Positions 8,439 through 24,256 are shown, counted from the first letter of the stretch. The stretch is 35,360 nt of DNA from an uncultured virus (IMG/VR IMGVR_UViG_3300005821_000187) (IMGVR_UViG_3300005821_000187), one strand, 5' to 3'. The notes: a model not told the origin generated them from the sequence alone. A program made the numbers and translations.

Positions 8439-9193
8439 TACGGTGTCGTGACCAGATCCCCGGCGACCATGACGCGTACGCGCGCATTGCTCGTGAGCGA
8501 CGTATTGCTGATCGATACCGAACTTGTGTTGACCGTGGCGAGCAAGTAGGCGAGCACGCCATCCGCTGCGCTCGCGCCCGAAGGATCGGCGGGTCGCTGG
8601 ACCTGCATCGCGCTCGCGCCCGGAGTGCTGTTGATCCCGTTGGTAATCCCGATGGAATGTCCCAAAATGGCCAGTGCGGTGCCGCTCTGAATGTCGATTT
8701 CCGACCCGGTGCCGGTCGTGGTGCTCGCGAGCCGCAGCTCGCCGCCGTTATCCGACGCAACGGGCGCTTGGCCGTTCAACGCAAGGCACGAGTTGATGCG
8801 GTTGACGACCTGAGCGAGCGACTGATCGGCCGCATCGAAGCTGCACGAGACCAGCCCACCGTTGTCCACATCGAGATTCAGGGTCTCGCCGCCGGCAAAG
8901 CCGGTCGGGTAGGTGCCCCCGGAGCCGTCCACGATTGCAGCCGTGGCGAGCGCACCCCCGAAGGTCACTTCGATCTCTAGGTCGCTTTCAACGTAGATGA
9001 GCCGGGCTTGGGTCACGTCGCCCATGTCGATCGCGAGGTTCGTAGTGCCCGACTCGATCGTGAGCACTTGGGAGATCGCGTGGTCGAGCGTGTCTAACAG
9101 CTCCGTGAAGCTCCGCTCGAAAAGGCAGTCGTCCAGCGAGTTATTGAGACCCACTTCGAGCGATAGCACTGTGTTGGTTCGTACCCCCATCAT
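8438..9193 (-). CDS. Putative virion structural/decoration protein
   Basis: Gly/Ala/Thr-rich beta protein with SLAQVVNRINS...ASDNGGELRLASTTTGTGSEI, a segment type seen in phage structural and flagellar-hook-like repeats. Confidence 0.55.
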   Translation of the reverse strand: MMGVRTNTVLSLEVGLNNSLDDCLFERSFTELLDTLDHAISQVLTIESGTTNLAIDMGDVTQARLIYVESDLEIEVTFGGALATAAIVDGSGGTYPTGFAGGETLNLDVDNGGLVSCSFDAADQSLAQVVNRINSCLALNGQAPVASDNGGELRLASTTTGTGSEIDIQSGTALAILGHSIGITNGINSTPGASAMQVQRPADPSGASAADGVLAYLLATVNTSSVSISNTSLTSNARVRVMVAGDLVTTP

Positions 9194-10989
9194 TCCCCCA
9201 CGATCTCTACATCGATGATCTGGCGATCATTGTGCACTCTTTGGCTCTTCCGCAACACTTCGACGGTACGGATGGCCGACTCAGAAGCCGCTAGGGCTTC
9301 CTTCTGGGATGCCTTGCCGCCCTTGACCCCCGAAGGTAGGTCTTTGCCCGAAGCCGACTCTTTGCCGCCCCCCTTGGCGCCTGGGGGGCCTTGCTGCTTC
9401 CCCTTGTCGTCGCCCTTGTCTTTGTCCTTGTCGGAACCGCCGAACCAGTCGGGAAGGCCACCGGAGTCGCCATCGCCGTCCCCGTCGCCTTCCTCGCCGA
9501 AGCCGCCTTCCTCGCCGCCCTCATCCATGCCGGTCTTGCCCTGGACCCATTGCAGGAACGTCGGGTCGAGAATGATCTCCCCAAGCCCATCGGGCAGCGG
9601 ATCTTGATCCATCTCAGCGCGGATTTCGTCGACCGTCTTGACCTTGGTGACTTCAAGCATCCGAGCCTCACGCTCTTTGTCTTCGGCCTTGGCATCGAAG
9701 CCGGTGAACTCGAATTCAAAGTCGGGCTCTAGCTCCCACACGATATGCTGATTGATCGTGTCTTCGATGTGCTCGATGAGCGGCCGGAGCCCCTTATCCT
9801 TCGACTCTTGCACTTCGGCCTGGTTCGGCCGGGATTCGAAGAGCGATGAGCCGCCGCCGCCGGAGCCGTAGATGAACCCGATCTCTAGGGGGTCGATCCC
9901 GTAGACCGAACAGATCGACTTGGTTAGGAAGTCGAGCCACTGGCCAAACTCCATTTCGCGGTTCGTCGAATGGAGCGAGACCCATTGCAGGTCTTCCGCA
10001 TTCAGAATCGGGGTCTTCCAACTGTTCTGGACGCCCGTCACCATCGAGTACCACATGCGTCGGAACGCGCGGAGCTGGCGGTCTGGAATGGCGCCCTTGA
10101 CGTTGATCACGCCCTTGATTGCGGAGCCCTGAGAGAAAAATTTGGTATTGTATTCGAAGCCATAGAGCCAGCTCGTGATCATGCGGATGAGCTGTTCAAT
10201 GGGCGAAAACCCGAAGCCATTCACGCGCAAGTCGCTTCGCGGGTTCATGACGCTCCACGCCATATCGTCAGGGCCGAACTCAGCGATCACGGAGTCTTCG
10301 TAGACCTGGACGTAAGCGACCCGGTTGCGGCGCTCTTCTGGGTCCATGTGCTCCACGTCCGCGACTGCGGGACGGATAGTCTCCGTGGGCAGCGCGATGA
10401 AACGGCTAATCCGACCTTTGCGGTCGCGGATCTTCTCGATGCAGATTTGGTCGTAGGTGAGGCAGTCCCGCACGATCTTCTTTAGGAAGCTGCGGAACGA
10501 GTCGCGATCGTACGCCTTCTCATCGGGGAGCATGTACCCGGTGGTTTCGATCATGCGCTCTAGCTCAGTCGCCTTCGTTTGCTGCGCTTTCGTCATGACC
10601 TTGGTTTTGTCGCGACGGTCCCGAAGGATAATGCGGTAGCCCCGGTCGTAGTCGCCTTGCTGCGGCACGGCGAACTGGCTGAGCTGGTTCACGCGGGTCT
10701 GGATAATGGCCGCGATCACCGTGTTCGATATGCTCATTTGGCGGAGCGTATCGTACGTGAGAATGCTGGGACGTTGCCGCCAGCCGCCCCAATCCATGAC
10801 GCTGTAGGGATCATGAAAGAGACCACGGGGCTTCTCTTCCGTGGGCTGCGCGAGCCCGCCCTTCATGAGTGCATCCTGCATCTCATCGAACGGCACATCG
10901 TCGCCAAGGTCATCGGCCTTGCGCAATGACTGCATGGCGCCGTCAAGAGCGCCCGTCCCCGCCGTTCGGATATCGTCTAGGAGCCCCAT
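9190..10989 (-). CDS. Portal protein
   Basis: AIIQTRVNQ, DCLTYDQICIE, GFGFSPIE, FFSQGSAIKGVI, MEFGQWL, YGIDPLEIGF and SKDKGLRPLI portal motifs. Confidence 0.92.
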   Translation of the reverse strand: MGLLDDIRTAGTGALDGAMQSLRKADDLGDDVPFDEMQDALMKGGLAQPTEEKPRGLFHDPYSVMDWGGWRQRPSILTYDTLRQMSISNTVIAAIIQTRVNQLSQFAVPQQGDYDRGYRIILRDRRDKTKVMTKAQQTKATELERMIETTGYMLPDEKAYDRDSFRSFLKKIVRDCLTYDQICIEKIRDRKGRISRFIALPTETIRPAVADVEHMDPEERRNRVAYVQVYEDSVIAEFGPDDMAWSVMNPRSDLRVNGFGFSPIEQLIRMITSWLYGFEYNTKFFSQGSAIKGVINVKGAIPDRQLRAFRRMWYSMVTGVQNSWKTPILNAEDLQWVSLHSTNREMEFGQWLDFLTKSICSVYGIDPLEIGFIYGSGGGGSSLFESRPNQAEVQESKDKGLRPLIEHIEDTINQHIVWELEPDFEFEFTGFDAKAEDKEREARMLEVTKVKTVDEIRAEMDQDPLPDGLGEIILDPTFLQWVQGKTGMDEGGEEGGFGEEGDGDGDGDSGGLPDWFGGSDKDKDKGDDKGKQQGPPGAKGGGKESASGKDLPSGVKGGKASQKEALAASESAIRTVEVLRKSQRVHNDRQIIDVEIVGE

Positions 10990-13900
10990 TAGTTACACGT
11001 GCAATGTCCGGGCGGGATCAGAAGAGTCTGCATCTTGGTGAGGTCGTGGTAGCCGTGTACCGGACAGTCGCCGTCCCCCTTTACCACGAACTCCGGTTCG
11101 GGTGCGGTAAATGCGCGCCGGGTCTCCGCGACCTGAGACTTGCGAAGCGCGATGCTGGGGTCTTCGGTGTCATCGATGAACGAGCCTTGCTCATGGTGGT
11201 CGGCGAGCTGCGCCGAAGGCCGTGCTCCGGGGTCTTCCTGAATCCAGGGAGCCTCTTTGGAGTAGTGGGCCACTTCGCCCCTGTACCCGTTGCCCGCATC
11301 GTTGTCGAAGCCGCTCACATCGGGCTGAATGAGCCCGGAGTTGCGGAGGATATTGGCGATGCTCACGGCCGTCGCATCCTTGCCGGCAGCCATGAGATCG
11401 GGGTTGTTCCGCATGTAGACGACCAGCTCGTTCATGATGCGCATGGCAAAGAAGTTGAGCTGATCATCGTAGCCCGTGGGCTTGTTTTTCACGTGCTCGC
11501 ATTCCTGCTTCTCGTGCTCGTAGGCTTGCTCTACGAACGCCCCAAGGTACTGCGGCAAGAGGTTGTCAGAGAGCTTGCGGCCCTTGCTCTCCGGCCCGCT
11601 CAGCTCGAAAGCGTAGAGGCCCTTTTTGAGCGAAGGCTCGAAGTGGCTCTTGCGAGCCTTGCGTGTATTGCATCGGCCGATGAGCTGTTGCACTACATCG
11701 TCCGCGACGCCCGCGGCCTTCATTTTGCCGATCAGCTCTTGGGTAATATCCCCCGACTTCATCTTTGCGATCAGCTTTTGGATGATATCGCCCTTGCTCT
11801 TCCCCATGAATGCGCTCTCTTTCTCTGGCCACCGCGCCCCCGCGTACTTGGCGGTCATCTTACCCGACCCGTAGTCCATATCGTAGTACCGGGCTTTGCG
11901 GAGCCCTTCCAAGCCTTCGATGGCATCACCGCTCTTGTCGAAGCTGACTTCTTTCGAGCGGTCGATCTTGTCGAGCGCGGCTAGTGCGAACTTCCGCACT
12001 TGCACGTTTAGCCGGCTGCGCTCCGCCATCTTGCTCTTCTCGCTCGCGATGGTCCGCTTCATTTGCGTCGGCGCAGTCCGCATCGAAAGGAGCCCGTCAG
12101 GGATATCCCCGCGCATCGCATGCGCGATTTTTTGCGAAGATCGAACGTCCGCGTTGTCGAGCTTGTTTTTGATCGCCCTAGCCATGCCATCGATGCTGAT
12201 CTCATCGTTGCCAGCTTCGACGGCCTCCGTGAAGTCTTTGAGATCCTTGGGAAGCCCCTCGATCACGCCGACCGCCCAACCGCCACCCAAGACACTGCGG
12301 GCATCGCTGCCACGCTTGACCTTGCCACCGCCCGCACCCGGTGCGTCCCGGTAGATCCACTTGCCCCCGGCACCACGCGTGCGCTGCCGGCCTTTCTTGG
12401 AGCCCGGTGCGCTGTGCCAGCCGCCGCCACTGGCCTTGCGGAGTGATTCGAGCCCATCGATGGCGTCGCCGCTTTTCTTGTGGCGCATGTACTTGGCCGC
12501 GTGGGTATGCCCCTGAGCCGCGTCGTCATGAAAGTGGGCCGTGTGGACGGCGGCCCGGATCTTGTCGTTCGTTTCCTTGCCGAACTTCGGGTCGACGCCG
12601 CCGGAGATATTGGCCCCTTCTCCGACGCCGAGCTTCTTACCGTAGGCTTTGACTTCCGCGGCGTGCTTTAGCTCGCGCCATTCGCTCATCTTGTCGCGGT
12701 ACGCGTCGCGGTGCTTGCCCGCGGCGCCGTAGTGGTCGCTCTTCGAATGTCCAGGGAAGAGCTGTTGCACGGCCTTGCCGAGCCCGGATGCGGACTGGAT
12801 CTGATCCCACGTGGGATTGTTCTGCCCCTTGATATTGAACTTCTGGCCCCGGTAGGAGTCGGGCGAGATATCGATCGCGGCGTGCTTGGCCTTGGCTTCC
12901 TCGCGCTGCTTATCGTGCGCGGGCTTTAGGTGAATCGCATCGAAGTGCGCATTCTTGGCGCTCTCGATTGCTCGCTGGATCTTCGCGTCGCCGTGCTCTT
13001 TAGCCCAGCTTACCGCCGCTTCGATATCCTCTTTGGGTACATCGGTGAAGGCTTTGAGCTTTTCCGCGGCGTTGTCGTTCCACTGGTTCAAGTGGTGGTC
13101 GTGGTAGAGATCGACGATCTTCTGGGTCTTGGCGCGCGCGTTCGGATCGGTATCCTTCGTAGCTCCGGGGCGCTTATCGTATTGCTCTTTGGTGTAGTAA
13201 TACTTGTAGCCCTTGCCCCCAGCCTTCGGGACACGCTTGTAGTATTTGCCGCCGCGCTGCACACCTTTGAGCAACACTTCGAGCCCTTCGATCGCATCGG
13301 CGCTCTTCTTAGCGTCCATCTCAGCCTTCTTTTTGCGCCACGCTTCGAGCGGATCTGCGCCCTTCATACCGCCGCTCTTCTCTTTGTTCCGGCGCACGGT
13401 CTCTGCCAGCTCCGCATCGGTCGAACTGCGGTAGCCGCTCTCCGCGCGCGTTCTGACGTTGCGCCTCTTGTTCTCCGCCAGCTCCGCATCGGAGCGGCGG
13501 CCCTTTGCGCGGTCTGCCCCGCGCTCTTCGGGGCTCTTGACCTTAGTGCCCTTCGGCCAACGGCCCTTGCCCTTGCCCGCATCGATAGCCGCCGCTGCTT
13601 TGCTAGGCGGCACGAATACATCGATTCTTCCGCGCTCTGTACCGGAGCCTTGGCGCACGGTGATATCGGATTTGCTGCCAACTAGCGTGGCCGCCACCGC
13701 GTTCATGATGTTATCGATAGTCCCTTGTGGCAGCGTCTTATCGACCGTGAGACTCAGCTCTTGCGTGCCGTCGTCATGCGTGAGCGCGGTCGAGCTTTCC
13801 ACGCCTGCGATTTGCTTCACGGCCGTGGCCATGCGCTTGCCCGTTCCTTCTTGTAGCTCTCTGAGGCCGCTCTTGCCGGAACGCTCCCGCTCCGCATCGG

Positions 13901-15071
13901 TACGTCGACCCTTGGTCTTCTTTTCCGTCTCACTAAAGTCAGCACTTCTAAGCGCCAACTTCTGAGCCTCTTCTAGCGACGATGCGTACCCCAATTTTTT
14001 GGTGGGGTTGCCCGCTTGCGACACGTGAAACAAGCCATCTTCGTCCGTAGCGTCAACAAAGATCCCGTGATCGTATTTGTAGCGGGTTCCGCCGTACTTC
14101 ATGTTGCGAATCACGGTGGGCTTGCTGCCTAAGTCGCGACCGCCCCATGCTTTGGTCTGGCCTTTGGCCTTGTCCGCTTTGCGCTTTCGAGCGTCGTCCT
14201 CGCGCTTCGCGAACACGTTGCGCATCTCCGATACCCGATCCCGAAGCGACGGGGGCACGACGTGGTGCTTGGGGCCGAACCGCTTGTCAGCGACTTCAAT
14301 GCCCCTCGCAAGCTCCTGGTAGGCCGCGTACTTCACCGGCCACTGTACGGAGCCGTCATAGGTGCGCTCGCTATCCCAGAGCTTGTCAGCGGCCTCTATG
14401 ATGCGCGCCTTCTCGCCCTCGGAAGGATTCAGCGGATCGATAGCATCCGCGGCGTCGTTCTGGTTCTTAGCGATGCGCTTGGCTAGCTCGAAATCCGTAG
14501 CCTCAGTGACCGGGGTGAGCTTGGTTCCGCCCGTTGGCGCATCGAGCACCATGATGTGCCGAACGCCTTTGATCGTGCTCCGAAAGTCGGCTTGCTCCGC
14601 GTACCACGCCTCGTTTTCGAGCTTTGTGCGCGCCATGTCAGCGGCGAGTGCCCGGCCTTCGGGGCTCGCATCGTTCGCTTTGCGGTTCGCCGCGTGCCAG
14701 CCCTCCGACCACGCATCGAGATAGGGCATGGTGCCGCCGACTTTCAAATCGAACGGCGTGCGGGCCATGAACTCTCTGTCTTGTGCGGACGCTTGAATGC
14801 CTTCCGCATGCGCTGCGGCGCCACGTGCGCGAGCTTGCTCCGGGGAAGTCCACTTGCCGGCGCCGCTCTTGGCTTTGCCCTTGGCTTTGCGCTTACCGCC
14901 CTTGCGGGGGCTACTCTGCCAGCCGCCGGAGCCGTCAGGATAACGGTACTGATACTTGCCGCCGACTCGCTTGCGCTGCCCGCCCTTAGTGCCCTTGGGG
15001 ATATTGCCCCAGCCGCCACCACCCGGCGCACCCTTGGCGAGCCGGCCTAGGCTATCGATTGCATCTCTCAT
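10989..15071 (-). CDS. Large basic virion-associated (poly)protein, 1360 aa, with four DAI[DE]xLxxLxK[AG] linkers
   Basis: Long ORF coupled to the portal gene; internal repeats visible; no catalytic domain recognised. Confidence 0.75.
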   Translation of the reverse strand: MRDAIDSLGRLAKGAPGGGGWGNIPKGTKGGQRKRVGGKYQYRYPDGSGGWQSSPRKGGKRKAKGKAKSGAGKWTSPEQARARGAAAHAEGIQASAQDREFMARTPFDLKVGGTMPYLDAWSEGWHAANRKANDASPEGRALAADMARTKLENEAWYAEQADFRSTIKGVRHIMVLDAPTGGTKLTPVTEATDFELAKRIAKNQNDAADAIDPLNPSEGEKARIIEAADKLWDSERTYDGSVQWPVKYAAYQELARGIEVADKRFGPKHHVVPPSLRDRVSEMRNVFAKREDDARKRKADKAKGQTKAWGGRDLGSKPTVIRNMKYGGTRYKYDHGIFVDATDEDGLFHVSQAGNPTKKLGYASSLEEAQKLALRSADFSETEKKTKGRRTDAERERSGKSGLRELQEGTGKRMATAVKQIAGVESSTALTHDDGTQELSLTVDKTLPQGTIDNIMNAVAATLVGSKSDITVRQGSGTERGRIDVFVPPSKAAAAIDAGKGKGRWPKGTKVKSPEERGADRAKGRRSDAELAENKRRNVRTRAESGYRSSTDAELAETVRRNKEKSGGMKGADPLEAWRKKKAEMDAKKSADAIEGLEVLLKGVQRGGKYYKRVPKAGGKGYKYYYTKEQYDKRPGATKDTDPNARAKTQKIVDLYHDHHLNQWNDNAAEKLKAFTDVPKEDIEAAVSWAKEHGDAKIQRAIESAKNAHFDAIHLKPAHDKQREEAKAKHAAIDISPDSYRGQKFNIKGQNNPTWDQIQSASGLGKAVQQLFPGHSKSDHYGAAGKHRDAYRDKMSEWRELKHAAEVKAYGKKLGVGEGANISGGVDPKFGKETNDKIRAAVHTAHFHDDAAQGHTHAAKYMRHKKSGDAIDGLESLRKASGGGWHSAPGSKKGRQRTRGAGGKWIYRDAPGAGGGKVKRGSDARSVLGGGWAVGVIEGLPKDLKDFTEAVEAGNDEISIDGMARAIKNKLDNADVRSSQKIAHAMRGDIPDGLLSMRTAPTQMKRTIASEKSKMAERSRLNVQVRKFALAALDKIDRSKEVSFDKSGDAIEGLEGLRKARYYDMDYGSGKMTAKYAGARWPEKESAFMGKSKGDIIQKLIAKMKSGDITQELIGKMKAAGVADDVVQQLIGRCNTRKARKSHFEPSLKKGLYAFELSGPESKGRKLSDNLLPQYLGAFVEQAYEHEKQECEHVKNKPTGYDDQLNFFAMRIMNELVVYMRNNPDLMAAGKDATAVSIANILRNSGLIQPDVSGFDNDAGNGYRGEVAHYSKEAPWIQEDPGARPSAQLADHHEQGSFIDDTEDPSIALRKSQVAETRRAFTAPEPEFVVKGDGDCPVHGYHDLTKMQTLLIPPGHCTCN

Positions 15072-18000
15072 CGAATATCCCCCACAACGAACCGCCTCTT
15101 GGGCACGGTGAACGCTGCCTTGCGAAGAGTATCCCCTTCGAGTCGGCGCATCATCTTTTCAAGTAGGCCCGACTCTTTGAACTTCGCAAAGATGTTCTCG
15201 AAGAGCGGGGCCATCGCGTCGGTTTCCTCGTCGGTCGGCCAAAGCCCGTCAGGCGAGCTAGCCGCCTTCCGCAGTGCCACAAGGTACGTATTGCTGCGCC
15301 CTTGCTTAGCCATCTTGCGCTGTAGGTGCCGTTCGAAGCTGCGGGCGAACATTTCGACGTGGCTCCGCCAATACTGCTTCTCCGGCGGAGAGTAGAGCGG
15401 GTTCTTGTCCATGGCCGTCGTGATCCGGGCATCGAACTTTCTAAACGCCTCGCTATCACGGAGCGCCGTCACGGCCTCGCGCGTAGGCGACGGTGGACCT
15501 TGGCTGGCGCCGCGTGGGACACGGCTCCCCGTAAGGTTGTTATCCCGGTTGCGACCGCCATTTAGGTCGGCTGCGCCCGCGTTCGAATCAAAGAAGTGGC
15601 CCCATTCGTGCGCGAGCGAGCCCGCGCCGTTTAGCCGCGTCAGGTTGATCGCGTTGGCGGTGGGTTCGTAGTGCGCGAGTGCCCCCGCGACACCACGTGC
15701 GCCCACGGCCATCGCGAGCTTGCCGTTGTAGCCCATCATGCTCGCCGGCAAGCCAGTCAGCTCCGCCATGTCATCGAAGCTATCGACCAGACTCTTTAGA
15801 TGGTGAACGCGCTCTTGGTCCGTGACGCTCTTGCCGAGCTGTAGGCCGCGCATCTTGAACGGGCCGCCCTTGCTCATGAGCTTGCGGCCTTGCTCGATGT
15901 GCTCGTAGCGGCTCTTCGGCCCCTTACGTTCCATCTTGTCCGTGTCGTACATGTCCCGAAGGTTGACCGCGTAGCCCTTGCCGCTCTTCTTTTCCCCGAA
16001 GGCCGCGTTGATGCTCTTGCCTTCCATGACCAGCATCGCCGCTTCGGTGGCTGCGCTATTGATCGCGTCGGCGTCTGGCCCGTGCTTCCTAGTGGCGCGG
16101 GATTTGATATCGTCGACTTGCCGCGATGGCCGTGTCTTGCCGCTCACTTGGCCGTTGTACGCCTTGCGCAAGCTCTCGATCTCCGCGGGGTGCTTGCCTT
16201 CGGCCCTGGCCCGCTGATACGCCGCACGGATCTGATCTTCGAGCCTGGTCGGCTCCGTGGTCGGCGGCCCGTAGCTGGGATACCGCATTTGCGGAGCTGC
16301 TTCGGGAGCACGGCCCGACGCGGAGTGCTTCTCGATGATCCCTTGAACCGTCGCGTACGCGTTGTAGTAGCCTTCGAGCGCGTCCCGCTGCCATTCCTTG
16401 GAGACTTCCGCCCACTTTTCGGGGTTGTTCCGGGCCTCTTCTAGCTCCGCCGCTTTCGCCTTGTACTCCGGGCTTTGGTGGTAGTCGTAGGTGCCCCGGC
16501 CCTCACGCTTCACGTCCCTGAAAAACCAAGCACGAGTAGGCGCGGTGCCGACCTTGGGCGGCTTCGCGGGGAACTTGTTCATCGCGAAGTAGTAGTGCGC
16601 TTGGTGGAGCACCCCATCTACGCCTTCCGCCTTCTGCGCGCGCCCGATGAACTCGATGGGCTTCTCACGGAGTAGGAACTTCCGCGTGAACATGGCGGGT
16701 GCGTCTTCTGAATCAAGAGCTTCGCGTAGGCTCTTCCAAGCCATCGCCCGGTGGCGCGCGCTGCCGAACACGTCTTCGCCGATCTGGCGTACGTTGCTAT
16801 CCCGATCGTTGACGTACTCGCCTTCCTCGATCATCGATTCAGTCGTGTGCGACGCCTTGCCGCGTGGTGTGGAAGCGGGGGCCTTCTTAGGCGGCTGCGA
16901 CTCTACATCCGCCTTGCTTTGCGCGCCCACTTGCTGGACCCACATCTTGTCCGTCGCGCTCACTGTGAGCGCGAGCGATTCGCCCGTTGCGACGTTCATG
17001 GTCGCAAGGTGGATCTTGAACCCCTTCTTACCCGACGCGATGATCCGGTACTGTTCATCGCCGAAGGGATGCAACACGTCGCCCGGCTTTATGAACGACG
17101 CGGCAAGGTGCACGATATCGGGCATGCCTTTGGGCGTGTCGGGCTCTTTGGGCGCCTCAGTCGCGCCGAAGTCGAGCGTCGTTTGGCCCGCCTGCTTCTT
17201 ATCGGGGGCCTTCTTTTTGGGTGCGCTTCGCTTGCGCGATGCGCCGCTCTGCCAGCCACCCTTGCCATCGGGATAGCGGTAGACCCACTTCATCCCCACG
17301 CGCTTGCGCTGGCCCCCACGCTTGCCGGCGGGAATGTTCCCCCAGCCCCCGGCTTTCTCTAGGTCGCCGACTACGAACCTATGTAGGGGCACGCTGTAGA
17401 GGCTCTTGCTAGTACCGCCCCGGCCGGGGATATCTACGATCTCGTCGCCGTCCCGATCCCGAAAAATGTACGCGCGCCCCTGGTCCTGCATCGCCTCGAC
17501 CATGAGGCGAATGTCATTGACTGACTTCTCGTCTTTGGAGCCCGTCAGTTTTTCCGTGAGGTAGCCTAGATTGTGGGACGCTGTTTTGATCGCGTCAGCC
17601 ACGTTCACGGCCGTGACTGAGCGCGACGGCTTAGCCATGGGCCACGGCTCGCCGTACTGGCCTTTGCGCGGCGGTAGCGTGTTTAAGTGCTCCGCGAAGT
17701 CGAGCCCGGTCTTCGTCAGGTCTTTTTGGTCATAAAACCCACCGTTGGAGAGAGCTAGGATACGGCCAAACTGCGGATGCGTTTCGACCTTGGCCCCGTC
17801 AGCGACAACGGACTGCATGAACGCTTTGAGCGTCGTGACCTTGCCATCGATGCTCCGCTGCTTATTGAGCGTCGCGTTGACCTTGGCCTTGCGCGCGGGG
17901 GTCATCTTGTCCGTGAAGCCTTGCGTGTCTTCGGCTTTGGCCTTCAACTTGGCGTCATTATCCTTTTGCGCTTGCACGCGCGCCGCCATCTTGTTCCGGC

Positions 18001-18958
18001 TTTCGGCTTGCCGTACGTCTAGGTTCTGTTCATCCGCAAGGTCTTTGCCATCGATGAGAGTGAGCATCGTGTGCCCCTCCGTTTCGACCATGAACTTGCC
18101 GTTGGCGTGCTTGCCGACGATCCTTCGTTCGCCGTCCGCAGAATTCCAACGCTCTTTCGTATGCGGCGGGAGCTTTTTGCTGGGGTCTTGCTTGGCCGGC
18201 GCGAGCTTCGCTTCGAGACTATCGCGGCGCTCGTGGAGCTTGGTTAGCTCGCGCTTGTCGATATCCGCCTGGATCTTCCCGGCCGTCGAAGGGTTGCTCT
18301 CGTTCTCGCCGATGCGCCATTCGCGCACGCCGATCTCATCCCGTGTGCGAAGCAACTCGCTCTCAGTCGCGCGCTTCGGGTTCGCGGCGCGCTTCTTTTG
18401 CTCTTCGACCAGCACGCTCGCCTGGTCACGGTAGTAGCCGCCGTTGTCCGTGTTCATCTCACGGTCCATCGAATCGGCGCTTGGGAGCGTGGCGCGAATG
18501 TCATCGAGCGCCCCGCTGAGAGCTTGGGGCGTCATCCGGTAGGCGCGCTGGCGGTACTCATCGAAATTGAGCGACCGGCGGGTGACCGGGCCGCGGGCGG
18601 CGTTCTGCCGGCGGCTCTCTTCGATGGACGCGTCTAAACGCTTCCCAGCCGCTTCCTTGCGCTCTTGCTCCCACCGCTTGGTCCTAGCCTCGAACTTCTT
18701 GACCTTGTGATCTACGAGTCGGCCTCGGATGCTCGTGTCCCGCTTAGGGCCGTGCTGCGGCTTGCCTCGGCTCACTCCGCTCTGCCAGCCGCCCTTGCCG
18801 TCCGGGTAACGGTAGAGATACCCCTTGCCGCTGCGCTTGCGCTGCCCGCCGTGCTTGCCGTTCGGGATATTACCCCATCCGCCCTTACCCTTTTCGAGCC
18901 CGCGCGCCATGATGGAACGCAACGAAGCCGCGTCCCCTATCGGTAGTCTCCCCGCCAT
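15068..18958 (-). CDS. Large polyvalent protein with C-terminal LPD1-like (DarA-associated) metallopeptidase-like domain
   Basis: AVGARG...AHYEP...INLTRLNGAGSLAHEWGHFFD...YWRSHVEMFARSFE...NTYLV, the LPD1 signature. Confidence 0.8.
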   Translation of the reverse strand: MAGRLPIGDAASLRSIMARGLEKGKGGWGNIPNGKHGGQRKRSGKGYLYRYPDGKGGWQSGVSRGKPQHGPKRDTSIRGRLVDHKVKKFEARTKRWEQERKEAAGKRLDASIEESRRQNAARGPVTRRSLNFDEYRQRAYRMTPQALSGALDDIRATLPSADSMDREMNTDNGGYYRDQASVLVEEQKKRAANPKRATESELLRTRDEIGVREWRIGENESNPSTAGKIQADIDKRELTKLHERRDSLEAKLAPAKQDPSKKLPPHTKERWNSADGERRIVGKHANGKFMVETEGHTMLTLIDGKDLADEQNLDVRQAESRNKMAARVQAQKDNDAKLKAKAEDTQGFTDKMTPARKAKVNATLNKQRSIDGKVTTLKAFMQSVVADGAKVETHPQFGRILALSNGGFYDQKDLTKTGLDFAEHLNTLPPRKGQYGEPWPMAKPSRSVTAVNVADAIKTASHNLGYLTEKLTGSKDEKSVNDIRLMVEAMQDQGRAYIFRDRDGDEIVDIPGRGGTSKSLYSVPLHRFVVGDLEKAGGWGNIPAGKRGGQRKRVGMKWVYRYPDGKGGWQSGASRKRSAPKKKAPDKKQAGQTTLDFGATEAPKEPDTPKGMPDIVHLAASFIKPGDVLHPFGDEQYRIIASGKKGFKIHLATMNVATGESLALTVSATDKMWVQQVGAQSKADVESQPPKKAPASTPRGKASHTTESMIEEGEYVNDRDSNVRQIGEDVFGSARHRAMAWKSLREALDSEDAPAMFTRKFLLREKPIEFIGRAQKAEGVDGVLHQAHYYFAMNKFPAKPPKVGTAPTRAWFFRDVKREGRGTYDYHQSPEYKAKAAELEEARNNPEKWAEVSKEWQRDALEGYYNAYATVQGIIEKHSASGRAPEAAPQMRYPSYGPPTTEPTRLEDQIRAAYQRARAEGKHPAEIESLRKAYNGQVSGKTRPSRQVDDIKSRATRKHGPDADAINSAATEAAMLVMEGKSINAAFGEKKSGKGYAVNLRDMYDTDKMERKGPKSRYEHIEQGRKLMSKGGPFKMRGLQLGKSVTDQERVHHLKSLVDSFDDMAELTGLPASMMGYNGKLAMAVGARGVAGALAHYEPTANAINLTRLNGAGSLAHEWGHFFDSNAGAADLNGGRNRDNNLTGSRVPRGASQGPPSPTREAVTALRDSEAFRKFDARITTAMDKNPLYSPPEKQYWRSHVEMFARSFERHLQRKMAKQGRSNTYLVALRKAASSPDGLWPTDEETDAMAPLFENIFAKFKESGLLEKMMRRLEGDTLRKAAFTVPKRRFVVGDIR

Positions 18959-21900
18959 TTACCGTTTCCTCGCTGTGAGCCTAACTCGCTTCTTCTTCTT
19001 TTTCCGCTTTGATTTCGGCTTGTCTTCGCCCACTAGCTCCGTGTCCTGGTAGGTCGTCTTCCCCTTCTCTTCGCGGGTGCGTGCATTCAGCTTGGGGCTC
19101 ACGCGGAGCGGCTTGCCTGTTTCCCGGTCTTGCGGTTGCTTGAACGCGGGATCGCTTTCCGTCCGGTCCATCTCCCATTTGATGGCCGGCTTGGCGCTGA
19201 GCACCTTGCCATGAAAGCCCCATTTGCCGCGCGCCCGCTTGGCATCGGCTTGCCGGCGGTTCATCGCCTGGTCCCGCTCGCGCTTGTGGGCGTCGCTGTC
19301 TTCGGGGGGATAATAGATGCCTTGGTAGTCGGGCATCGGCGGCGTATCGAAGCGGGGTGCGCCTCGTGCTTCGCCTACCTGAATGTTCGGCGTGAGGATC
19401 GAACGGGCCTTCACGATCAAGGTGGGCTCGCTCTTGACGACCAGTGTGGGTTCCATGCTCTTCTTTGCCTCACCCTTCATGGCCCGCTCTAGCAACGCTT
19501 CGGGCGATGGCTTGTCGCCGAACATGCTGTCTTGATCTTCGGGGTGCTGGGCAGCGAGCGCGGCGTAGTCGCGGAAGACGGCGCTCATCTTTTGGGGGCC
19601 ATTCTTGCGGATGAGCACTTCAAGCAAGGTCATGGCGCGGGGGTTGTCGAGAATCGGGTTCCGCTCCCCGAACATCTCCGCTTGCGCGAAGAGCCCCTTG
19701 AACTCTTTGTCGCTCATGTCGGCGTTCAAAGCTGCCCGGTGGCCTTGCCGAGCCCGGAAGCTCAGATCGTTGAACTGTTCAAGCGCGACTTTGAGATCAT
19801 CCCCTAGGTCATACGTGGCACCGTGGGCCTTGGCTTGCGCCATGAACGGCACGCTTCGGGCGATATTCCCGACGATCTTGGCGGTCGTGTTGCTGAGCAA
19901 GTCAGCGTCGCCGACCGTGCGCCCTACAAGCACGCGCTCGACCAGTTGCTTGCCGTCCTCGTTCAACCGCTTGGTGCCCTTGACCATGTACTGATTCGAG
20001 TTGCGCTGATCGATCACGCCAACGCGGGTGAGCGCATTGATGAACCCTTCGGCCCGTGGCGAATCAAGAAAGGCATTCAGGGTCTCATCGGCTTCCATCG
20101 AATCGCCAAGTTGCTTGACCGCTGCATCGTCCAGCTTACGGCCCATGGCGACCTGCATCGTCCGCGGGTCCATCCCCTGAGTGAACGACTCGTTCATTTG
20201 CCGCACGAGTAGCTTCTGGTCGTCCGGTCCCGTCGACTCGACCACGCGCACGAGCACGGGGTTTTTGAGCGCCTTCACGTCTTCGGGGGTGAACCCGGTC
20301 TCATGGGCGTGGGCTTCCATGTAGGCCCGTAGCTCTTTGGCCCGATCGGGGTGCTTCTCATAAGCGAGTTGCATGCTCATCGTGCGCGAGTTGCCCCCCA
20401 GCACCACGCCGTTCTGGTCCAGAATGGGTGGGCCGTTGACCGCATCGGGGTTCGTATTGACCAGGAATGCGGGATTGAGCTTGTTCGCGTTCCGCATGAC
20501 CTTGGCTTGTTCGGCCCGGTCCCGGTGGTAGGCGCGCTCTTGCACCCCTTCGGGATACCCCTCCCGTTGCTTGAATGAGTTGGGGTCATGCGACGCGACG
20601 GCCTCAGAGGCTTCCACGAGCTTGTAGCGGGCCTTTAGAGCCCGCGGAGCGCCGTTCTCGCCCGCTACGTACACCACGGCCGAAGCGCCCTCACGCGTCG
20701 GCTGAGAGCGCGGAATGACCGCCTGCACTTGGGCCATCGCATCGCGGGTCGGCTGGATGGCCTTGTCTTTGAGCCCTGGCATCGCCTGAGCCACGAGCGC
20801 GAGCCGCGCCATCGCGGGGCTATTGAGCGCGGCTTCAAGGGCCTCTTTGGGGTTGCCGTCCCGTGCCTTGGCCAGTGCCGAGCTGAGCGTCGCCAGCTCC
20901 GTTTCGGCCTTCCCAGCCAGATCGTCGACTTCGGCTTTGAGCGTCTTGCCGCCGGGTGGGTCGAGAATATCGGCCATCGCCTGGACGTGCCCAGCCTTGA
21001 CCTTGCCGCCGCCGGCTAGGTTCTCCGCCCCCTGAATGGTCTGGCGGTAGGCCATGTTCCGGTGCTCTATGACGTTCCCAATGACCGCCGCGCGGGCTTC
21101 GGGCTCCCAGCCCTTGCGCTCTAGGACGGTGCCGAGCACCCGCTTCGCTTCGAACGGGCTCACCCCGGAACGCTGAAAGCTGGCCCTGAGCTTGGCGTAG
21201 ACTTCGGGCACCCGCTTTTCGAGCTGCGCCATGCGCTCCGCGTCCGTGCCTTTCAGGTCGGTTAGCATCTCACGGGGCACGTGGCGGAGCACGGCGTTGA
21301 CCGTCTGCGAAGCCCGCTTCTCCGCCCATTCGAAGTACCGATCGCCGTAGTGCTTGGCCATGAGCTTCGACCACTGGTCCGCAGTCACAGTGCGCTTGCG
21401 CTTGCCCTCACGGATCGTGATCTTGCCGTCTTTGTCGATCCCGAGCACTTCGGCGACACGCGTGCCGAGCTTCACGGTCTCGCCCACGGTCACGTCACGG
21501 GCTGCGGCGCTCTCCCGGTAGTAGTAGCGATACTTGCGCTTGCCGTTCACGTAGTACGGCACGCGTTTGATGTACTTGCCCCCGCGCGCGGCTTGCTCGC
21601 CTTTGCTGAGCGAAGTCACAAGGATGGGCTCATTATCCTCTGACTTTTGGAGCTTCATACCCGTCGACCGCAGCGCCCTTTCGAGCTGATCACGGACGCG
21701 GGGTTTCAGCGAGCTTGGGCCGTTGCGCACGTAGTGGTCGAAGGCTTCGGCGAACAGCTCCCCATCATCGGTCTCCGCGTACTGAGTCACGAACTCATCG
21801 GGGATCGATGCGTTGACGGTCCCGGCCTTGACCGCTTGCCGAAACGACTCCCCCATTTGCTCCGCGGTCTGCCCGTAGTGCGGCACGTTGCCCCACTTAT

Positions 21901-24256
21901 CGAGCTTGTCGCTGCCGAGCTTTAGCTGTTGGAGTAGGAACTTCTGACGCTTCGCTTCGGGCGTGCCCTTAGCTTCGAGTGCTTTGAGCGTGTAAAGCAC
22001 GTCCGCTTTGGGGCGGCCCTCGGAATTCATTTCGAGCAAGTCAGCCAGCTCTTCCACGTCGTCATCCGTGACCTTCTCACGCCGGCTTTCGTAGAAGTTG
22101 GCCCATTCCGCGCGCGCCTTGCTGCCCATGAGCTGGTAGTACACGCGGTGCCCTAGCTCATGCGTGACCACGCGTTGCGTGTTCCCGCTGTTGAACAGCC
22201 GCACATAGTCTTGCTGCACATTGTAGTAGCCGGCCGTCGTGAAGTTTTCGCGCCCCCGGTGCTCATGCCCTTCGACGGAACGGCGCGTTTCGTTGTGCAC
22301 GTGCACGCGCAGCCCAGCCAAGGTCTTGCCGAGCCCCATCTTGTCGAGCTTCGTTTTGACCCGGAGCGCGGTCTCGACCACGTTCGCGATCTCATCGTCG
22401 CCCGCGGCCGTGCCTTCGAAGCCTTCCCCGTGGACGGCGAACTGAATGCCCTGCTTATTGAACGTGCTGATCGGGGTGCGACTTGTCTGCCCCGCGTGGG
22501 TATCTGCGATGAACGTGTCGACCGCATTCAGCAAGCCACGCACGCGCCGCTGAGTCTGCTTCCAAGCCGTAGCGGCGTACTCCGCCATCTCAATGCCGGG
22601 CGCGTACGTCACGCTCTCTTTGTGTTGCATCGCTTCGGGGAAGCCCCCTGTAAAGTGCATGCCGCTCAACTTGGTAGCTATGTCGCGTCGGCCGATCTCA
22701 GGGATATCCTCCGGCTTTGTCAGTAGGGCTCTGCCCTCTAGCCCAAGCACGTGGCTTGTGGCCCACCCGCGCAACTGCATCCCCATGTTTTCCACGACGT
22801 TCTTGGCTTCGTAGAACTTCTCCGCAAACTCTTCGGGCACTTCGGGCTCAAAAGCGAAGGGGCGCTTCGATGGTTCGATCGCGTTGTGCGCATCCCACTG
22901 CGGCCGGAAGATCGTTTCGGCCTCATCCATGATTTGCTTCTGGAGCTTGGTGGCTTGGCGGAAATCTTTGCGCCATTGTGCGACCGCTTCGTGGGACAAC
23001 GGCCCCCACACGTTCACGCGCTTCTTAGCCTTCTTTTTGCGCCCCGTGCGCTTCGGCTTGGCGCTATCGGGATACCAATACTGCCAGCTCCCAGCGTGGC
23101 GCTTGCGGTAGCCGCCGCGCTTGCTGTTCGGAACGGCGGAATAGCCGGCTGGTGGCCCCTCTTTGGGGGTCGAATCGCGCGTGAAGTCGAGCCCTAGCTG
23201 TTCGGCCTTCTCGATGGTCGCGAGTTTTTCGTAATAAGCCGCGTCTTCGGTCAAATGGTCCATGGCGATCTCGGTTGCGATGGCACGATCGCTCGTGTGC
23301 TCCATTTCAACCTTGATACCCGCCGCTAACTTCGCTTTGTCGAAGTCAGAAGGCTTCTTTTTGTCGGCGAGACCGCCTGGGATCTTGTCGGCCTTGCGAA
23401 ACTCCGCCCCATCGAAGTCACGGGCCTGTTCAAGTAGCTCATCTTTGTCGAGCGCCACTTCGATACAGGGCACTTTTTGGTCGAGCGCCTTGCATGCGGC
23501 CCAACGGTGGTGCCCATCGAGAATAAAGCCGTCGTGACTCACCACGATCGGCTTTTTCAACGCTTCGGGAGTGTTTTTCAGCCGCTCGACCTTGGCCGTA
23601 TCGAGTTTGTTCTGCATCGGTTGGAGCTTGTCGGCGTCGTAGCTCTTACGCTTGCACTTCGCGCCGTCTTTGCGCAGCTCTTTCAGGAATGCCGGGAGCT
23701 TTTTGGCAACGATCTGCGGCATTTCGATGCGCTTCTCATCGCCATTCAGGCGTTGCGCCTTGATCACGAGCGTGGGCTCGCTCTTGACCGCTATGGAGCG
23801 GATGGTGGGCACCTTGCCGTAGTCGGTTTGCGTCGTTCGGCGCCAGTACGCGATCACGCGCTTGGTTAGCTCCATGCGAATGTCGGAGCTGATATACGGC
23901 ATGGCCCGCAGCACGGTCACAAAGCGTTCGCGAGCGAGCGCGATGCGTTGCGTTTGCTGAGTCTGGTCGAAATGCGCGTTGGTATCGACAATGAGCCGCT
24001 GTACCGCCTGCTCATCGGCGGAGTCGAGCCCCAAGCCGGCGGTCACGTCCTCGATGGTGACGATATGACGCGGCAACGGAGCATCCTCCGTGGTCATGTT
24101 CTGCCGAAAGATGCGATTCGCAGCGAGTTGGGGGTCTAAAAGGCCGCCTTTACCCGCAACAAGGCGCGCACGAATCTTGTTCGTGGGAGCCATCGACGGG
24201 AAGCCCGATGAAGCGTTGGTGTGCCAACGCGAGCGTTCTGCTTTGCGAAAGGCCAC
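18959..24256 (-). CDS. Large polyvalent protein: ParB/Srx-like, DUF5661-like, zinc metallopeptidase and DdrB-like ParB domains
   Basis: KPIVVSHDGFILDGHHRWAA; GIKVEMEHTSDRAIATEIAMDHLTEDAAYYEKL; THELGH...TQYAETDDGELFAEAF; YKLVEASEAVASHD...NGPPILDQNGVVLGGNSRTM. Confidence 0.8.
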   Translation of the reverse strand: MAFRKAERSRWHTNASSGFPSMAPTNKIRARLVAGKGGLLDPQLAANRIFRQNMTTEDAPLPRHIVTIEDVTAGLGLDSADEQAVQRLIVDTNAHFDQTQQTQRIALARERFVTVLRAMPYISSDIRMELTKRVIAYWRRTTQTDYGKVPTIRSIAVKSEPTLVIKAQRLNGDEKRIEMPQIVAKKLPAFLKELRKDGAKCKRKSYDADKLQPMQNKLDTAKVERLKNTPEALKKPIVVSHDGFILDGHHRWAACKALDQKVPCIEVALDKDELLEQARDFDGAEFRKADKIPGGLADKKKPSDFDKAKLAAGIKVEMEHTSDRAIATEIAMDHLTEDAAYYEKLATIEKAEQLGLDFTRDSTPKEGPPAGYSAVPNSKRGGYRKRHAGSWQYWYPDSAKPKRTGRKKKAKKRVNVWGPLSHEAVAQWRKDFRQATKLQKQIMDEAETIFRPQWDAHNAIEPSKRPFAFEPEVPEEFAEKFYEAKNVVENMGMQLRGWATSHVLGLEGRALLTKPEDIPEIGRRDIATKLSGMHFTGGFPEAMQHKESVTYAPGIEMAEYAATAWKQTQRRVRGLLNAVDTFIADTHAGQTSRTPISTFNKQGIQFAVHGEGFEGTAAGDDEIANVVETALRVKTKLDKMGLGKTLAGLRVHVHNETRRSVEGHEHRGRENFTTAGYYNVQQDYVRLFNSGNTQRVVTHELGHRVYYQLMGSKARAEWANFYESRREKVTDDDVEELADLLEMNSEGRPKADVLYTLKALEAKGTPEAKRQKFLLQQLKLGSDKLDKWGNVPHYGQTAEQMGESFRQAVKAGTVNASIPDEFVTQYAETDDGELFAEAFDHYVRNGPSSLKPRVRDQLERALRSTGMKLQKSEDNEPILVTSLSKGEQAARGGKYIKRVPYYVNGKRKYRYYYRESAAARDVTVGETVKLGTRVAEVLGIDKDGKITIREGKRKRTVTADQWSKLMAKHYGDRYFEWAEKRASQTVNAVLRHVPREMLTDLKGTDAERMAQLEKRVPEVYAKLRASFQRSGVSPFEAKRVLGTVLERKGWEPEARAAVIGNVIEHRNMAYRQTIQGAENLAGGGKVKAGHVQAMADILDPPGGKTLKAEVDDLAGKAETELATLSSALAKARDGNPKEALEAALNSPAMARLALVAQAMPGLKDKAIQPTRDAMAQVQAVIPRSQPTREGASAVVYVAGENGAPRALKARYKLVEASEAVASHDPNSFKQREGYPEGVQERAYHRDRAEQAKVMRNANKLNPAFLVNTNPDAVNGPPILDQNGVVLGGNSRTMSMQLAYEKHPDRAKELRAYMEAHAHETGFTPEDVKALKNPVLVRVVESTGPDDQKLLVRQMNESFTQGMDPRTMQVAMGRKLDDAAVKQLGDSMEADETLNAFLDSPRAEGFINALTRVGVIDQRNSNQYMVKGTKRLNEDGKQLVERVLVGRTVGDADLLSNTTAKIVGNIARSVPFMAQAKAHGATYDLGDDLKVALEQFNDLSFRARQGHRAALNADMSDKEFKGLFAQAEMFGERNPILDNPRAMTLLEVLIRKNGPQKMSAVFRDYAALAAQHPEDQDSMFGDKPSPEALLERAMKGEAKKSMEPTLVVKSEPTLIVKARSILTPNIQVGEARGAPRFDTPPMPDYQGIYYPPEDSDAHKRERDQAMNRRQADAKRARGKWGFHGKVLSAKPAIKWEMDRTESDPAFKQPQDRETGKPLRVSPKLNARTREEKGKTTYQDTELVGEDKPKSKRKKKKKRVRLTARKR

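Follow-up and report, generated by a model that had tools for sequence, protein, structure and literature searches.

The products of three adjacent giant genes (g3, g2 and g1), which lie directly upstream of the portal gene in a 35,360-nucleotide (nt) stretch of DNA from an uncultured virus (IMG/VR IMGVR_UViG_3300005821_000187; hereafter the window), are punctuated by a recurrent joint cassette, in which a short leader ends in a hydrophobic residue, any residue and a lysine, followed by alanine, glycine or serine. The cassette is widespread among very large proteins and specific for lysine, it coincides with the borders of exchangeable modules, and its junction matches the likely cut site of the phage's own prohead serine protease. 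Because the cassette ends in the signature expected for trimming of the coat protein, the giants are probably capsid-loaded cargo, and we lean towards a reading in which they are packaged polyvalent proteins that the prohead protease would cut into roughly 13-15 pieces. Polyvalent proteins are common in phages, and the cassette bears on how they enter capsids and on whether and how they are taken apart. What is new is the joint cassette, widespread and lysine-specific, which connects the architecture of polyvalent proteins with the maturation protease of the capsid itself.

Three giant head proteins share a joint cassette

The joints of the three giants follow a common layout: an optional K↓S site (↓, predicted bond), a leader of 7-20 residues, the hydrophobic-x-Lys↓Ala/Gly/Ser junction and, usually, a basic β-hairpin 'knuckle' with a Lys/Arg-rich tail. 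Leaders come in two kinds, amphipathic-helical (DAIxGLxxLxK) and extended (EPTLV[IV]K, AFTVPxxRFVV). Knuckles are rich in glycine and aromatic residues and come in three types, which MAFFT aligned as one family: type A (GGWGNIP..GGQRKR..YRYPDG), type B (GGKYYKRVP..YKYYY) and type C, seen in relatives (GPYIGPRGGKWAD..H.I.W). The peptides that an earlier, sequence-only reading of this DNA had singled out at domain boundaries are all present, with positions 13263-13310, 12432-12479 and 11892-11939 translating to KKSADAIEGLEVLLKG, KKSGDAIDGLESLRKA and DKSGDAIEGLEGLRKA, respectively. Joints that lack a knuckle also bear the signature (g3 residues 166, 288 and 1608/1616; g1 1059, 1150 and 1311/1331; g2 1280), and many internal leaders begin K-S-M-D-A-I, which makes them look as if they could be former gene starts.

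Domain content and position assign the giants to the polyvalent class. From its N-terminal domain, g3 continues through a ParB-like domain (171-291; phrog_2859, E 5e-21), DUF5661 (310-350; Pfam, E 5e-8), a HELGH zincin (motif at 699) and a ddrB-ParB module (886-1597; Pfam match at 1207-1339, E 1e-20, 74.2 bits against a cut-off of 27.6) to a conserved basic C-terminal module (1617-1765); phrog_17197, a 'peptidase' family, also matches. The ParB and DUF5661 domains named in the sequence-only reading are borne out by these matches. The MPTase-like region of g2 is a C-terminal HEWGH metallopeptidase with LPD1 (1010-1262; HExxH at 1117), matching LPD1 at E 3.8e-15 (56.1 bits, cut-off 27) and phrog_616 at E 7e-31. 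Searches of g1 against Pfam and PHROG matched no family, and no peptidase domain could be detected in it, so its polyvalent status comes from module homology only; its C-terminal module (1151-1360) also forms the end of many related proteins, and an ESM Atlas search with residues 1150-1360 gave no usable match.

Repeats and termini of the giants show further features. A 111-nt DNA repeat (D1) was found at the N-terminal cassette of g2, and another (D5) is common to joints 5 and 1 of g3, the spacer being duplicated at joint 5; g2 closes with a spacer of the internal type. At g1 residues about 527-562 (13386-13492), just upstream of cassette 2, a direct DNA repeat with copies 72 nt apart (35 nt, 80% identity) encodes the duplicated peptide ..SDAELAENKRRN.. 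/ ..TDAELAETVRRN... A 28-residue Cys/His tail (DGDCPVHGYHDLTKMQTLLIPPGHCTCN; 10992-11075, minus strand) follows the paired-site spacer of g1 and may be a zinc knuckle; all five relatives have it, as do many of the representatives. The g3 N-terminus (24242-24256, minus strand) reads (M/V)AFRK5↓AERSRWHTNASSGFP; relative G004 has MVIRK↓AERSKWH.., and the open reading frame (ORF) of L020 as called starts VAERSRWH... These first residues could be a 5-residue leader with the same hydrophobic-x-K signature. In the nearest record (G001, 94% shared words), the frame around the g1 cassettes is given as 1105 amino acids (aa), compared with 1360 aa in the window, which could be a real difference or a contig break.

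The cassette is widespread and specific for lysine

A profile built from 27 cassettes, taken from the window and from four relatives, was run against 1.84 billion representative proteins; it returned 296 representatives, each standing for a cluster, at E<=1e-3, with 66 of them at E<=1e-10. The best 150 of these 296 were mostly 600-3100 aa long and held 2-10 matched stretches each. In the two complete relatives of the phage (101 and 108 kb), profile matches fell in the giant genes only; in the incomplete relative G003, the homolog of the head-cluster protein p591 matched as well. Pfam families were found in 16 of 26 representatives scanned from the best 150. Those typical of polyvalent proteins are InPase, ddrB-ParB, SNF2 helicase, topoisomerase IB, zeta toxin, SAM lyase and GNAT; GGDEF, PAPS reductase, DUF5661 and DUF6582 were matched as well. 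No Pfam family covered the knuckle in these 26 proteins.

Cultured phages gave little. A tblastn search against them with the cassette-rich protein P0010 found no match, and searches with P0040, P0021 and P0002 found single enzyme domains only, namely InPase (PB1-like phages), zeta-toxin-like regions and an LPD/MPTase region (Stx-phage giants). A PDB sequence search with the cassette profile returned 0 matches at E<=10, and a full-text literature search for the knuckle strings GPRGGKW, IGPRGG, GPKGGKW and PRGGKWAD returned no paper.

The junction is strongly biased towards lysine. Among 243 type-C knuckles in the 150 best proteins, 238 have K[AGS] within 25 residues upstream, and in 224 of these the residue two before the lysine (P3, the lysine being P1) is L, I, V, M or F; the distance from K[AGS] to the knuckle is 2-5 residues for 223 of the 243. 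Types A and B behave alike, with an upstream K[AGS] within 25 residues for 47 of 51 and 18 of 19 knuckles, respectively. Within 8 residues upstream of type-C knuckles, P1 is Lys in 228 cases, Arg in 5 and neither in 10, against an overall Lys:Arg count of 15695:12476 in the same proteins. Leucine occupies P3 in 156 of 248 internal junctions. Protein N-termini hold 55 of the 303 junctions, with leaders mostly of 6-13 residues (for example, M-K-D-A-I-E-G-L-G-R-M-A-K↓G-G-P-Y-I-G).

The claim that sites are paired around a spacer holds in the window and carries over only partly to the wider family, where a second upstream K[AGS] forms broad peaks at 9-10 and 13-14 residues (16-21 cases versus roughly 5-8 elsewhere). 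We gave up the idea that paired sites keep one strict distance across the wider family, as these peaks are broad and amount to a 2-3-fold excess only.

Joints coincide with module borders

We compared the giants by BLAST with relatives and the 150 representatives, and counted internal endpoints of high-scoring segment pairs (HSPs) lying no more than 12 residues from a site, against 5000 random placements; related endpoints are not independent. In g3, 46 of 77 endpoints fell near sites versus 11.2 expected (equalled in 0 of 5000 placements), with clusters at joint 1 (nine endpoints at 168-176), joint 2 (12 at 281-304), joint 4 (15 at 852-902) and joint 5 (16 at 1569-1610). The corresponding counts were 7 of 21 versus 2.7 expected in g2 (P 0.04) and 14 of 38 versus 7.7 in g1 (P 0.08). 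Six g1 endpoints lie at 1030-1042, by cassette 4, and six at 1145-1149, by K1150; homology to relative L017 begins at residue 869 of g1, within cassette 3, and at residue 518 of g2, at its internal cassette.

Joint 1 of g3 is a swap point for modules in relatives. The window reads ..EPTLVIKA/[ParB module]..EFRKA/DKIPGG (slashes mark module borders). In L016 the ParB module is replaced (..EPTLVIGAELRKA/GAYVGPRGGKW[other module]..SRLRKA/DKIPGG), and in G004 both modules stand in series, joined at EFRKA/GAYIGPRGGKW, the GAYIGPRGGKW module being inserted exactly at joint 2. The modular build proposed in the sequence-only reading is thus supported by homology breakpoints on the sites and by module changes exactly at joints in three relatives.

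Joint sites are also better conserved than other matches to the loose motif [LIVMF]xK[AGS]. At the joint sites listed in the sequence-only reading, K[AGS] was kept in 66 of 92 homolog-by-site cells, versus 69 of 145 for other loose sites (Fisher P 3e-4; the cells are not independent). K350 at joint 3 of g3 was kept in 11 of 11 homologs covering the site, cassette 2 of g1 in 8 of 9, the two sites of g1 cassette 4 in 8 of 9 and 6 of 9, g1 K1150 in 13 of 15 (the lysine being invariant in alignment A2), and g1 K1311 and K1331 in 10 of 17 each. For two loose matches inside domains of g3, the counts were 6 of 16 homologs (residue 1130) and 8 of 18 (residue 1426).

Low-confidence structure models place leader helices so that they would end at the joint lysine (for example, g1 K602) and suggest that knuckles are β-hairpins. 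The g2 joint at 518-535 is modelled within a long stretch (residues 486-624) with a predicted local distance difference test score (pLDDT) <50, and g1 1150 within a low-confidence linker ahead of the sole confident core, 1160-1250. A fold search with the g1 model found only generic helical-bundle matches (Z below 8, model residues 78-163).

The prohead protease and its expected cut site

The prohead protease of the window aligned with the annotated phage 812 prohead protease at 29% identity over 174 aa (BLASTP, E 1e-19); Pfam Peptidase_S78, the family of HK97-type prohead serine proteases, scored 16.6 bits, below its cut-off of 21 (E 0.0088), and a PDB sequence search with the protease gave 0 matches. 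Its NDNHDHS and RRLGFSVEG stretches align with N--YEHQS and RRLGFSIEG of the phage 812 enzyme and would contain the putative catalytic His and Ser.

The coat protein anchors the expected cut site. It matches SPO1 Gp6.1 in the PDB (E 9e-53) and the phage 812 coat protein (E 7e-30). The 463-aa phage 812 precursor reads ..QEDVVK24↓S25FQTGYG, and the deposited chain (PDB 9row, 9rox, 9roz; 439 aa) starts at S25. This K24↓S25 junction aligns with SPO1 ..ALNK↓ALEAG, which in turn aligns with ..ELRK31↓ALTAGS in the window, where K31↓A32 is the only loose-motif site of the coat protein; a 43%-identical coat protein of another cassette-bearing relative reads ..ALNKA↓LVAGQ. The one experimental anchor is the deposited chain, as literature searches on the A511, phi812 and SPO1 maturation site gave nothing usable.

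Shuffling each of 17 window proteins (g1 and 16 others) 2000 times, we found the loose motif strongly enriched in the scaffold-like protein (9 sites versus 1.12 expected) and in the protease (8 versus 1.14; 0 of 2000 shuffles each), and slightly in the portal (5 versus 2.02, P 0.045). The portal has two candidate trimming sites, SLRK24↓A and VLRK581↓S; neither R580 nor K581 varies among 8 portals. In the complete relative G002 (110 ORFs by crude calling), only the protease (8 versus 1.09) and scaffold (9 versus 1.09) are enriched, and in phage 812 the protease (6 versus 1.53, P 0.001) and the neighbouring gp93 (7 versus 1.31, P 0.0005). The sequence-only reading had reported such motifs in scaffold, portal and a MuF protein; the first two hold, strongly and slightly, whereas the 591-aa protein (p591) is not recognisable as MuF.

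After VLAK165↓S, the protease carries a copy of the coat N-arm (5745-5828 versus 4387-4626, minus strand; 26 of 54 residues identical, E 4e-13; LSAGNAVSDPGTAPGEGFPLRDESLE in the protease, LTAGSDVNDPGVAPGVGFPLRTESLE in the coat protein). Phage 812 has the same arrangement (FMKS↓FLTGHGTSPDTQVDAGALRKE versus VVKS↓FQTGYGITPDTQIDAGALRRE), and the copy may be how the protease gets placed in the prohead. N-terminal leaders ending in the consensus are found in g1 (K13↓G), g2 (K23↓G), coat (K31↓A), scaffold (K29↓A) and portal (K24↓A) of the window. Among the ORFs of G002, 5 of the 9 in the head cluster (g1, portal, protease, scaffold and coat) have a hydrophobic-xx-hydrophobic-x-K[AGS] leader in their first 45 residues, compared with 4 of 101 others (Fisher P 1e-4). 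The head-cluster protein p251 is free of lysine not only in the window but also in G002, L017, L008, L019 and L032 (the L032 homolog being 50% identical), with one lysine in L020. Together, the phage 812 homology, coat junction, motif enrichment, N-arm copy, leaders and Lys-free p251 are good indirect evidence that the protease cuts after Lys in hydrophobic-x-K↓small residue. The joint signature of the giants matches this expected specificity, as the sequence-only reading had anticipated.

The giants could instead be cut by their own zinc metallopeptidases (HELGH in g3, HEWGH/LPD1 in g2, HEIGH in p591), in the head or after injection and with the prohead protease uninvolved. HExxH motifs stand at g3 699, g2 1117 and p591 508, the peptidase-type family matches of g2 and g3 given above would fit, and the main text of Iyer et al. 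proposes autoproteolysis by MPTase domains together with a polyprotein analogy (PMC5512222). Three points make us regard this as quite unlikely: no peptidase domain is detectable in g1, which nevertheless has four joints or more; the joints carry the signature of the coat, scaffold and protease sites rather than one of their own; and no peptidase is among the families at E<=1e-5 in the 26 representatives, a weak point in that Pfam may lack these zincins.

Cut cargo or intact adaptors

In the reading that we favour, the giants would be built into the prohead, where their spacer peptides may help to dock them. The prohead serine protease would then cut after Lys in hydrophobic-x-K↓[AGS]: it would trim the coat at K31↓A32, shred the scaffold and itself, trim the portal and cut the giants at their joints. 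The 13-15 pieces predicted from the sites make the about ten effectors of the sequence-only reading a reasonable count. Short leaders would leave as peptides, and each module would keep a basic knuckle at its new N-terminus, which, more speculatively, may hold the module on DNA until ejection.

Several results weigh against this reading. The sequence-only reading had named lack of enrichment over a Lys-rich background as a result that would refute it, and by that measure its simple version fails, since the loose motif is not significantly enriched in the giants: they hold 30 sites versus 20.6 expected (g1 11 versus 7.65, P 0.14; g2 7 versus 5.78, P 0.35; g3 12 versus 7.17, P 0.06), G002 behaves likewise, and plain K[AGS] counts are 35 versus 33.2 expected in g1, 35 versus 29.3 in g2 and 53 versus 40.1 in g3. 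Many borders in g1 residues 14-588 have no site (endpoints at 145, 287-303, 415 and 488-523). Some loose sites in modelled helices or knuckles are poorly kept, among them g2 932 (0 of 3 homologs; predicted inside a helix with pLDDT about 73) and g1 766 (0 of 2), and g1 616 lies inside a knuckle. AlphaFold2, suggested earlier as a check of boundaries, put joints at helix ends or in stretches of pLDDT <50; yet the models, built from shallow alignments, are poor (mean pLDDT 48.0 for g1 561-1360 and 52.8 for g2 97-1296), give a weak indication of linkers only and put some loose sites inside helices or knuckles. The cassette profile contains the Lys column, which biases the best stretch of each of the 150 proteins, and knuckles were therefore recounted by a pattern that ignores upstream residues. 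Two of these 150, P0033 and P0096, resemble an unrelated repeat, and the counts include them. Finally, K[AGS] and knuckle keep a fixed register of 2-5 residues, which could reflect one folded unit instead of a cleavage site, and other packaged giants are uncut or not known to be fragmented, as given in the cited accounts of the N4 virion RNA polymerase (PMC5512222) and phi24B gp47 (bioRxiv 10.64898/2026.04.10.717836).

Since loose-motif enrichment fails in the giants, it is the extended cassette that carries the claim. In g1, the long motif D[AGS][LIV]xx[LIVM]xx[LIVMF]xK[AGS] was counted 4 times, where 0.01 occurrences are expected; it is absent from the 16 other proteins tested. This count, the cassette's presence in 296 clusters, the 228:5 preference for Lys over Arg at P1, the frequent Leu at P3 and the coincidence of g3 breakpoints with sites all speak against K-[S/A/G] matches being functionless by-products of Lys-, Gly- and Ala-rich low-complexity interdomain linkers. 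Such by-products, already disfavoured, strike us as very improbable, even with loose-motif counts in the giants inside the shuffle range and several sites not kept in close relatives.

The register and the unenriched loose motif speak for uncut adaptor modules. Leader helix, Lys and glycine-rich hairpin would then make up a small unit, repeated between cargo domains, that folds as one or binds DNA, the capsid interior or a partner, the giants staying whole in the virion like the N4 virion RNA polymerase or P1 DarB. Lys/Arg-rich tails after the knuckles suggest nucleic-acid binding, the N4 enzyme is described as packaged unprocessed, and the 2811-aa phi24B gp47 is present in virions, with no fragmentation reported in the relevant part of that account. 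We hold this alternative to be rather unlikely, though it is the strongest of the three. Leaders without a knuckle end in this hydrophobic-x-K[AGS] too, as do the N-terminal leaders of the coat, scaffold and portal proteins, where knuckles are likewise lacking; P1 is Lys rather than Arg; a second K↓S often lies one leader-length upstream; and the signature equals the junction at the mature N-terminus of the homologous phage 812 coat protein.

A broader version of the cut-cargo reading, which we offer tentatively and consider possible but doubtful, is that the cassette is a general 'address-and-cut' unit of a large clade of uncultured phages, with one leader per module, removal by the protease and a knuckle as DNA tether. 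By analogy, the leader would be equivalent to the T4 capsid targeting sequence, and three precursors would yield a dozen or more effectors. Modules could then be swapped, inserted or split at joints without breaking packaging or processing, because every module would end and begin with the same cassette, and the shuffling of modules between phages would be explained. A conserved joint read by the maturation protease would in itself supply a concrete, testable mechanism, would allow the ends of the products to be predicted exactly for hundreds of cargo proteins that are so far uncharacterised, and would suggest a portable leader plus cut-site tag for loading chosen proteins into phage heads. 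The broader version, if true, would describe a plug-in system for injected counter-defence enzymes and offer a design rule for putting foreign proteins into capsids.

Genomic context

The window is part of an uncultured phage genome of ~100 kb with a capsid of the SPO1/Herelleviridae type; the G+C content of this phage group is 60%. Its head genes form an operon on the minus strand (g3-g2-g1-portal-p251-p591-protease-scaffold-coat; Table 1) in which stops and starts abut or overlap, the g1 start codon overlapping the g2 stop codon and the portal start codon overlapping the g1 stop codon. We considered the three giants as one frameshifted ORF and dropped this, since their stops and starts abut or overlap cleanly.

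Table 1. Positions of the giant genes, their joints and other head-related features in the window; ↓ marks a predicted bond
Feature	Position	Strand	Description
g3	18959..24256	-	1765-aa polyvalent protein
g3 joint 1	23756..23791	-	AVK158↓SEPTLVIK166↓A, paired site round beta-type spacer, directly ahead of ParB module
g3 joint 2	23390..23404	-	EFRK288↓A, between ParB module and DUF5661
g3 joint 3	23063..23218	-	TIEK350↓A, then type-A knuckle (PPAGYSAVPNSKRGGYRKRHAGSWQYWYPDS)
g3 joint 4	21509..21652	-	LQK871↓SEDNEPILVTSLSK885↓G, then type-B knuckle (ARGGKYIKRVP...KYRYYY)
g3 joint 5	19406..19465	-	KK1599↓SMEPTLVVK1608↓SEPTLIVK1616↓A, triple site, spacer duplicated
g2	15068..18958	-	1296-aa polyvalent protein, two leader-plus-knuckle cassettes
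g2 N-terminal cassette	18776..18958	-	23-aa leader ending GLEK23↓G, then type-A knuckle (GGWGNIP...YRYPDGKGGWQSG)
g2 internal cassette	17243..17410	-	SK518↓SLYSVPLHRFVVGDLEK535↓A, then type-A knuckle
g2 C-terminal spacer	15071..15130	-	TLRK1280↓AAFTVPKRRFVVGDIR, then stop codon
g1	10989..15071	-	1360 aa, four DAIxxLxxLxK leaders
g1 N-terminal cassette	14913..15071	-	MRDAIDSLGRLAK13↓G (MRDAIDSLGRLAK↓G), then type-A knuckle
g1 cassette 2	13188..13310	-	KK589↓SADAIEGLEVLLK602↓G, then type-B knuckle
g1 cassette 3	12339..12479	-	KK866↓SGDAIDGLESLRK879↓A, then type-A-like knuckle
g1 cassette 4	11892..11939	-	DK1046↓SGDAIEGLEGLRK1059↓A, no knuckle after
g1 site K1150	11616..11633	-	SLKK1150↓GL, start of widely conserved C-terminal module
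g1 C-terminal paired sites	10992..11150	-	ALRK1311↓S...AFTAPEPEFVVK1331↓G, then 28-aa Cys/His tail (DGDCPVHGY...HCTCN)
Portal protein	9190..10989	-	599 aa; Pfam Phage_portal, E 6e-26
p251	8438..9193	-	251-aa head-cluster protein, zero lysines
p591	6663..8438	-	591-aa protein, leader-like GLLVK37↓AEPVPRYGKGTFRRYK, HEIGH motif at 508
Prohead serine protease	5574..6314	-	246 aa; phrog_1028, E 1.3e-43
Scaffold-like protein	4658..5590	-	310 aa, no family match; first motif site ELLK29↓A
Major capsid (coat) protein	3217..4626	-	469 aa, SPO1/Herelleviridae type; phrog_752, E 1.5e-88
Predicted coat maturation site	4531-4557	-	ELRK31↓A32, from alignment to SPO1 / phage 812 coat
TerL	25922-27553	opposite to head operon	

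We set aside the assignment of p591 to MuF, having found no Pfam or PHROG match at E<=0.01 and none to MuF up to E 5; around its HEIGH motif there are weak SprT-like and Mx1-peptidase matches (E 0.15-0.2). No Pfam or PHROG family was found for p251, which has 8 Arg and the lowest Lys content of the 74 ORFs of at least 150 aa in G002 (median 3.6%). Two neighbours carry runs of opposite charge: the protease tail has GGKKKKKKKR and the scaffold-like protein DDEEEEEEEGDEEGDD. Elsewhere on the minus strand, a 150-aa protein (2675-3127) matches endonuclease VII (phrog_3281, E 1e-7), and the best family for a 361-aa protein (365-1450) is phrog_772 'tail fiber protein' (E 4e-58), alongside a weak match to a head-tail adaptor family.

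A DNA search with 25 kb of the window found no match among 50,697 phage records, and tblastn with the coat protein matched 784 phage records, all at <60% identity (best 33%). Relatives are present in IMG/VR, including the two complete genomes mentioned above. A search for the coat pattern in contigs of a genome collection gave 19 pattern matches, 0 of them confirmed. Four genome-collection contigs from metagenome-assembled genomes (L041-L044) carry the DNA pattern for YIGPRGGKWAD; they are labelled Myxococcales (two, one a 3.5-Mb chromosome), Lentisphaeria and Sedimentisphaerales, and could represent hosts or prophages of the wider clade.

Comparison with known systems

Polyvalent proteins as defined by Iyer, Burroughs, Anand, de Souza and Aravind in 2017 are predicted to be packaged and injected, and their authors compared them with viral polyproteins and proposed embedded peptidases as cutters (PMC5512222). 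Like them, the giants of the window are very large chains of unrelated effector domains beside portal and virion genes. Release in that account is by embedded peptidases, whereas here one conserved joint cassette ends in the likely cut site of the prohead protease. The main text of that paper does not contain the words linker, spacer, boundary, interdomain, glycine, low-complexity or disordered, and has 'prohead' only in its reference list. A literature search on prohead-protease processing of polyprotein-like phage ejection proteins found nothing closer.

The Herelleviridae (phage 812/K, SPO1) share with the window a homologous coat protein and protease, the hydrophobic-x-K↓small junction, a motif-enriched protease and scaffold, and the N-arm copy in the protease tail. 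Phage 812 differs in having no giant polyvalent gene in the 8.2-kb stretch examined, which is cut inside the portal gene.

Giant phages offer a precedent for broad processing. In SPN3US, phiKZ and 201phi2-1, as in the system proposed here, one head protease with a short consensus acts on many head and ejection proteins, including the portal and itself, with several sites per substrate; the 14 sites mapped in SPN3US are spread over 9 proteins, and all but one serve to remove N-terminal propeptides (13 of 14; PMC10052503). There, as that account describes it, propeptides are discarded and functional modules are not separated from one another, and the protease family and consensus differ.

In the Dar system of phage P1, giant anti-restriction cargo is encoded just ahead of the genes for portal and protease (DarB, Prt and Pro being ORFs 10-12), as in the window, and P1 DdrB carries the ddrB-ParB domain found in g3 (PMC9024508, PMC5512222). 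The N-terminal 30 residues of DarB suffice for capsid targeting (PMC9024508, PMC5512222), and a capsid targeting sequence is known for T4 as well as for DarB (PMC9024508). In the parts of these papers that deal with the Dar proteins, no repeated joint cassette is described and DarB is treated as a single 250-kDa protein, unlike the reading favoured here.

The internal proteins of T4 resemble the proposed cargo in having a short N-terminal leader that ends in the head-protease consensus shared with coat and scaffold, and in being basic and injected with the DNA. The T4 prohead protease, gp21, has its own consensus and cuts after Glu. T4 encodes its cargo as separate small genes with one leader each, whereas in the window the leaders recur inside giant multi-module chains and the residue at the junction is Lys.

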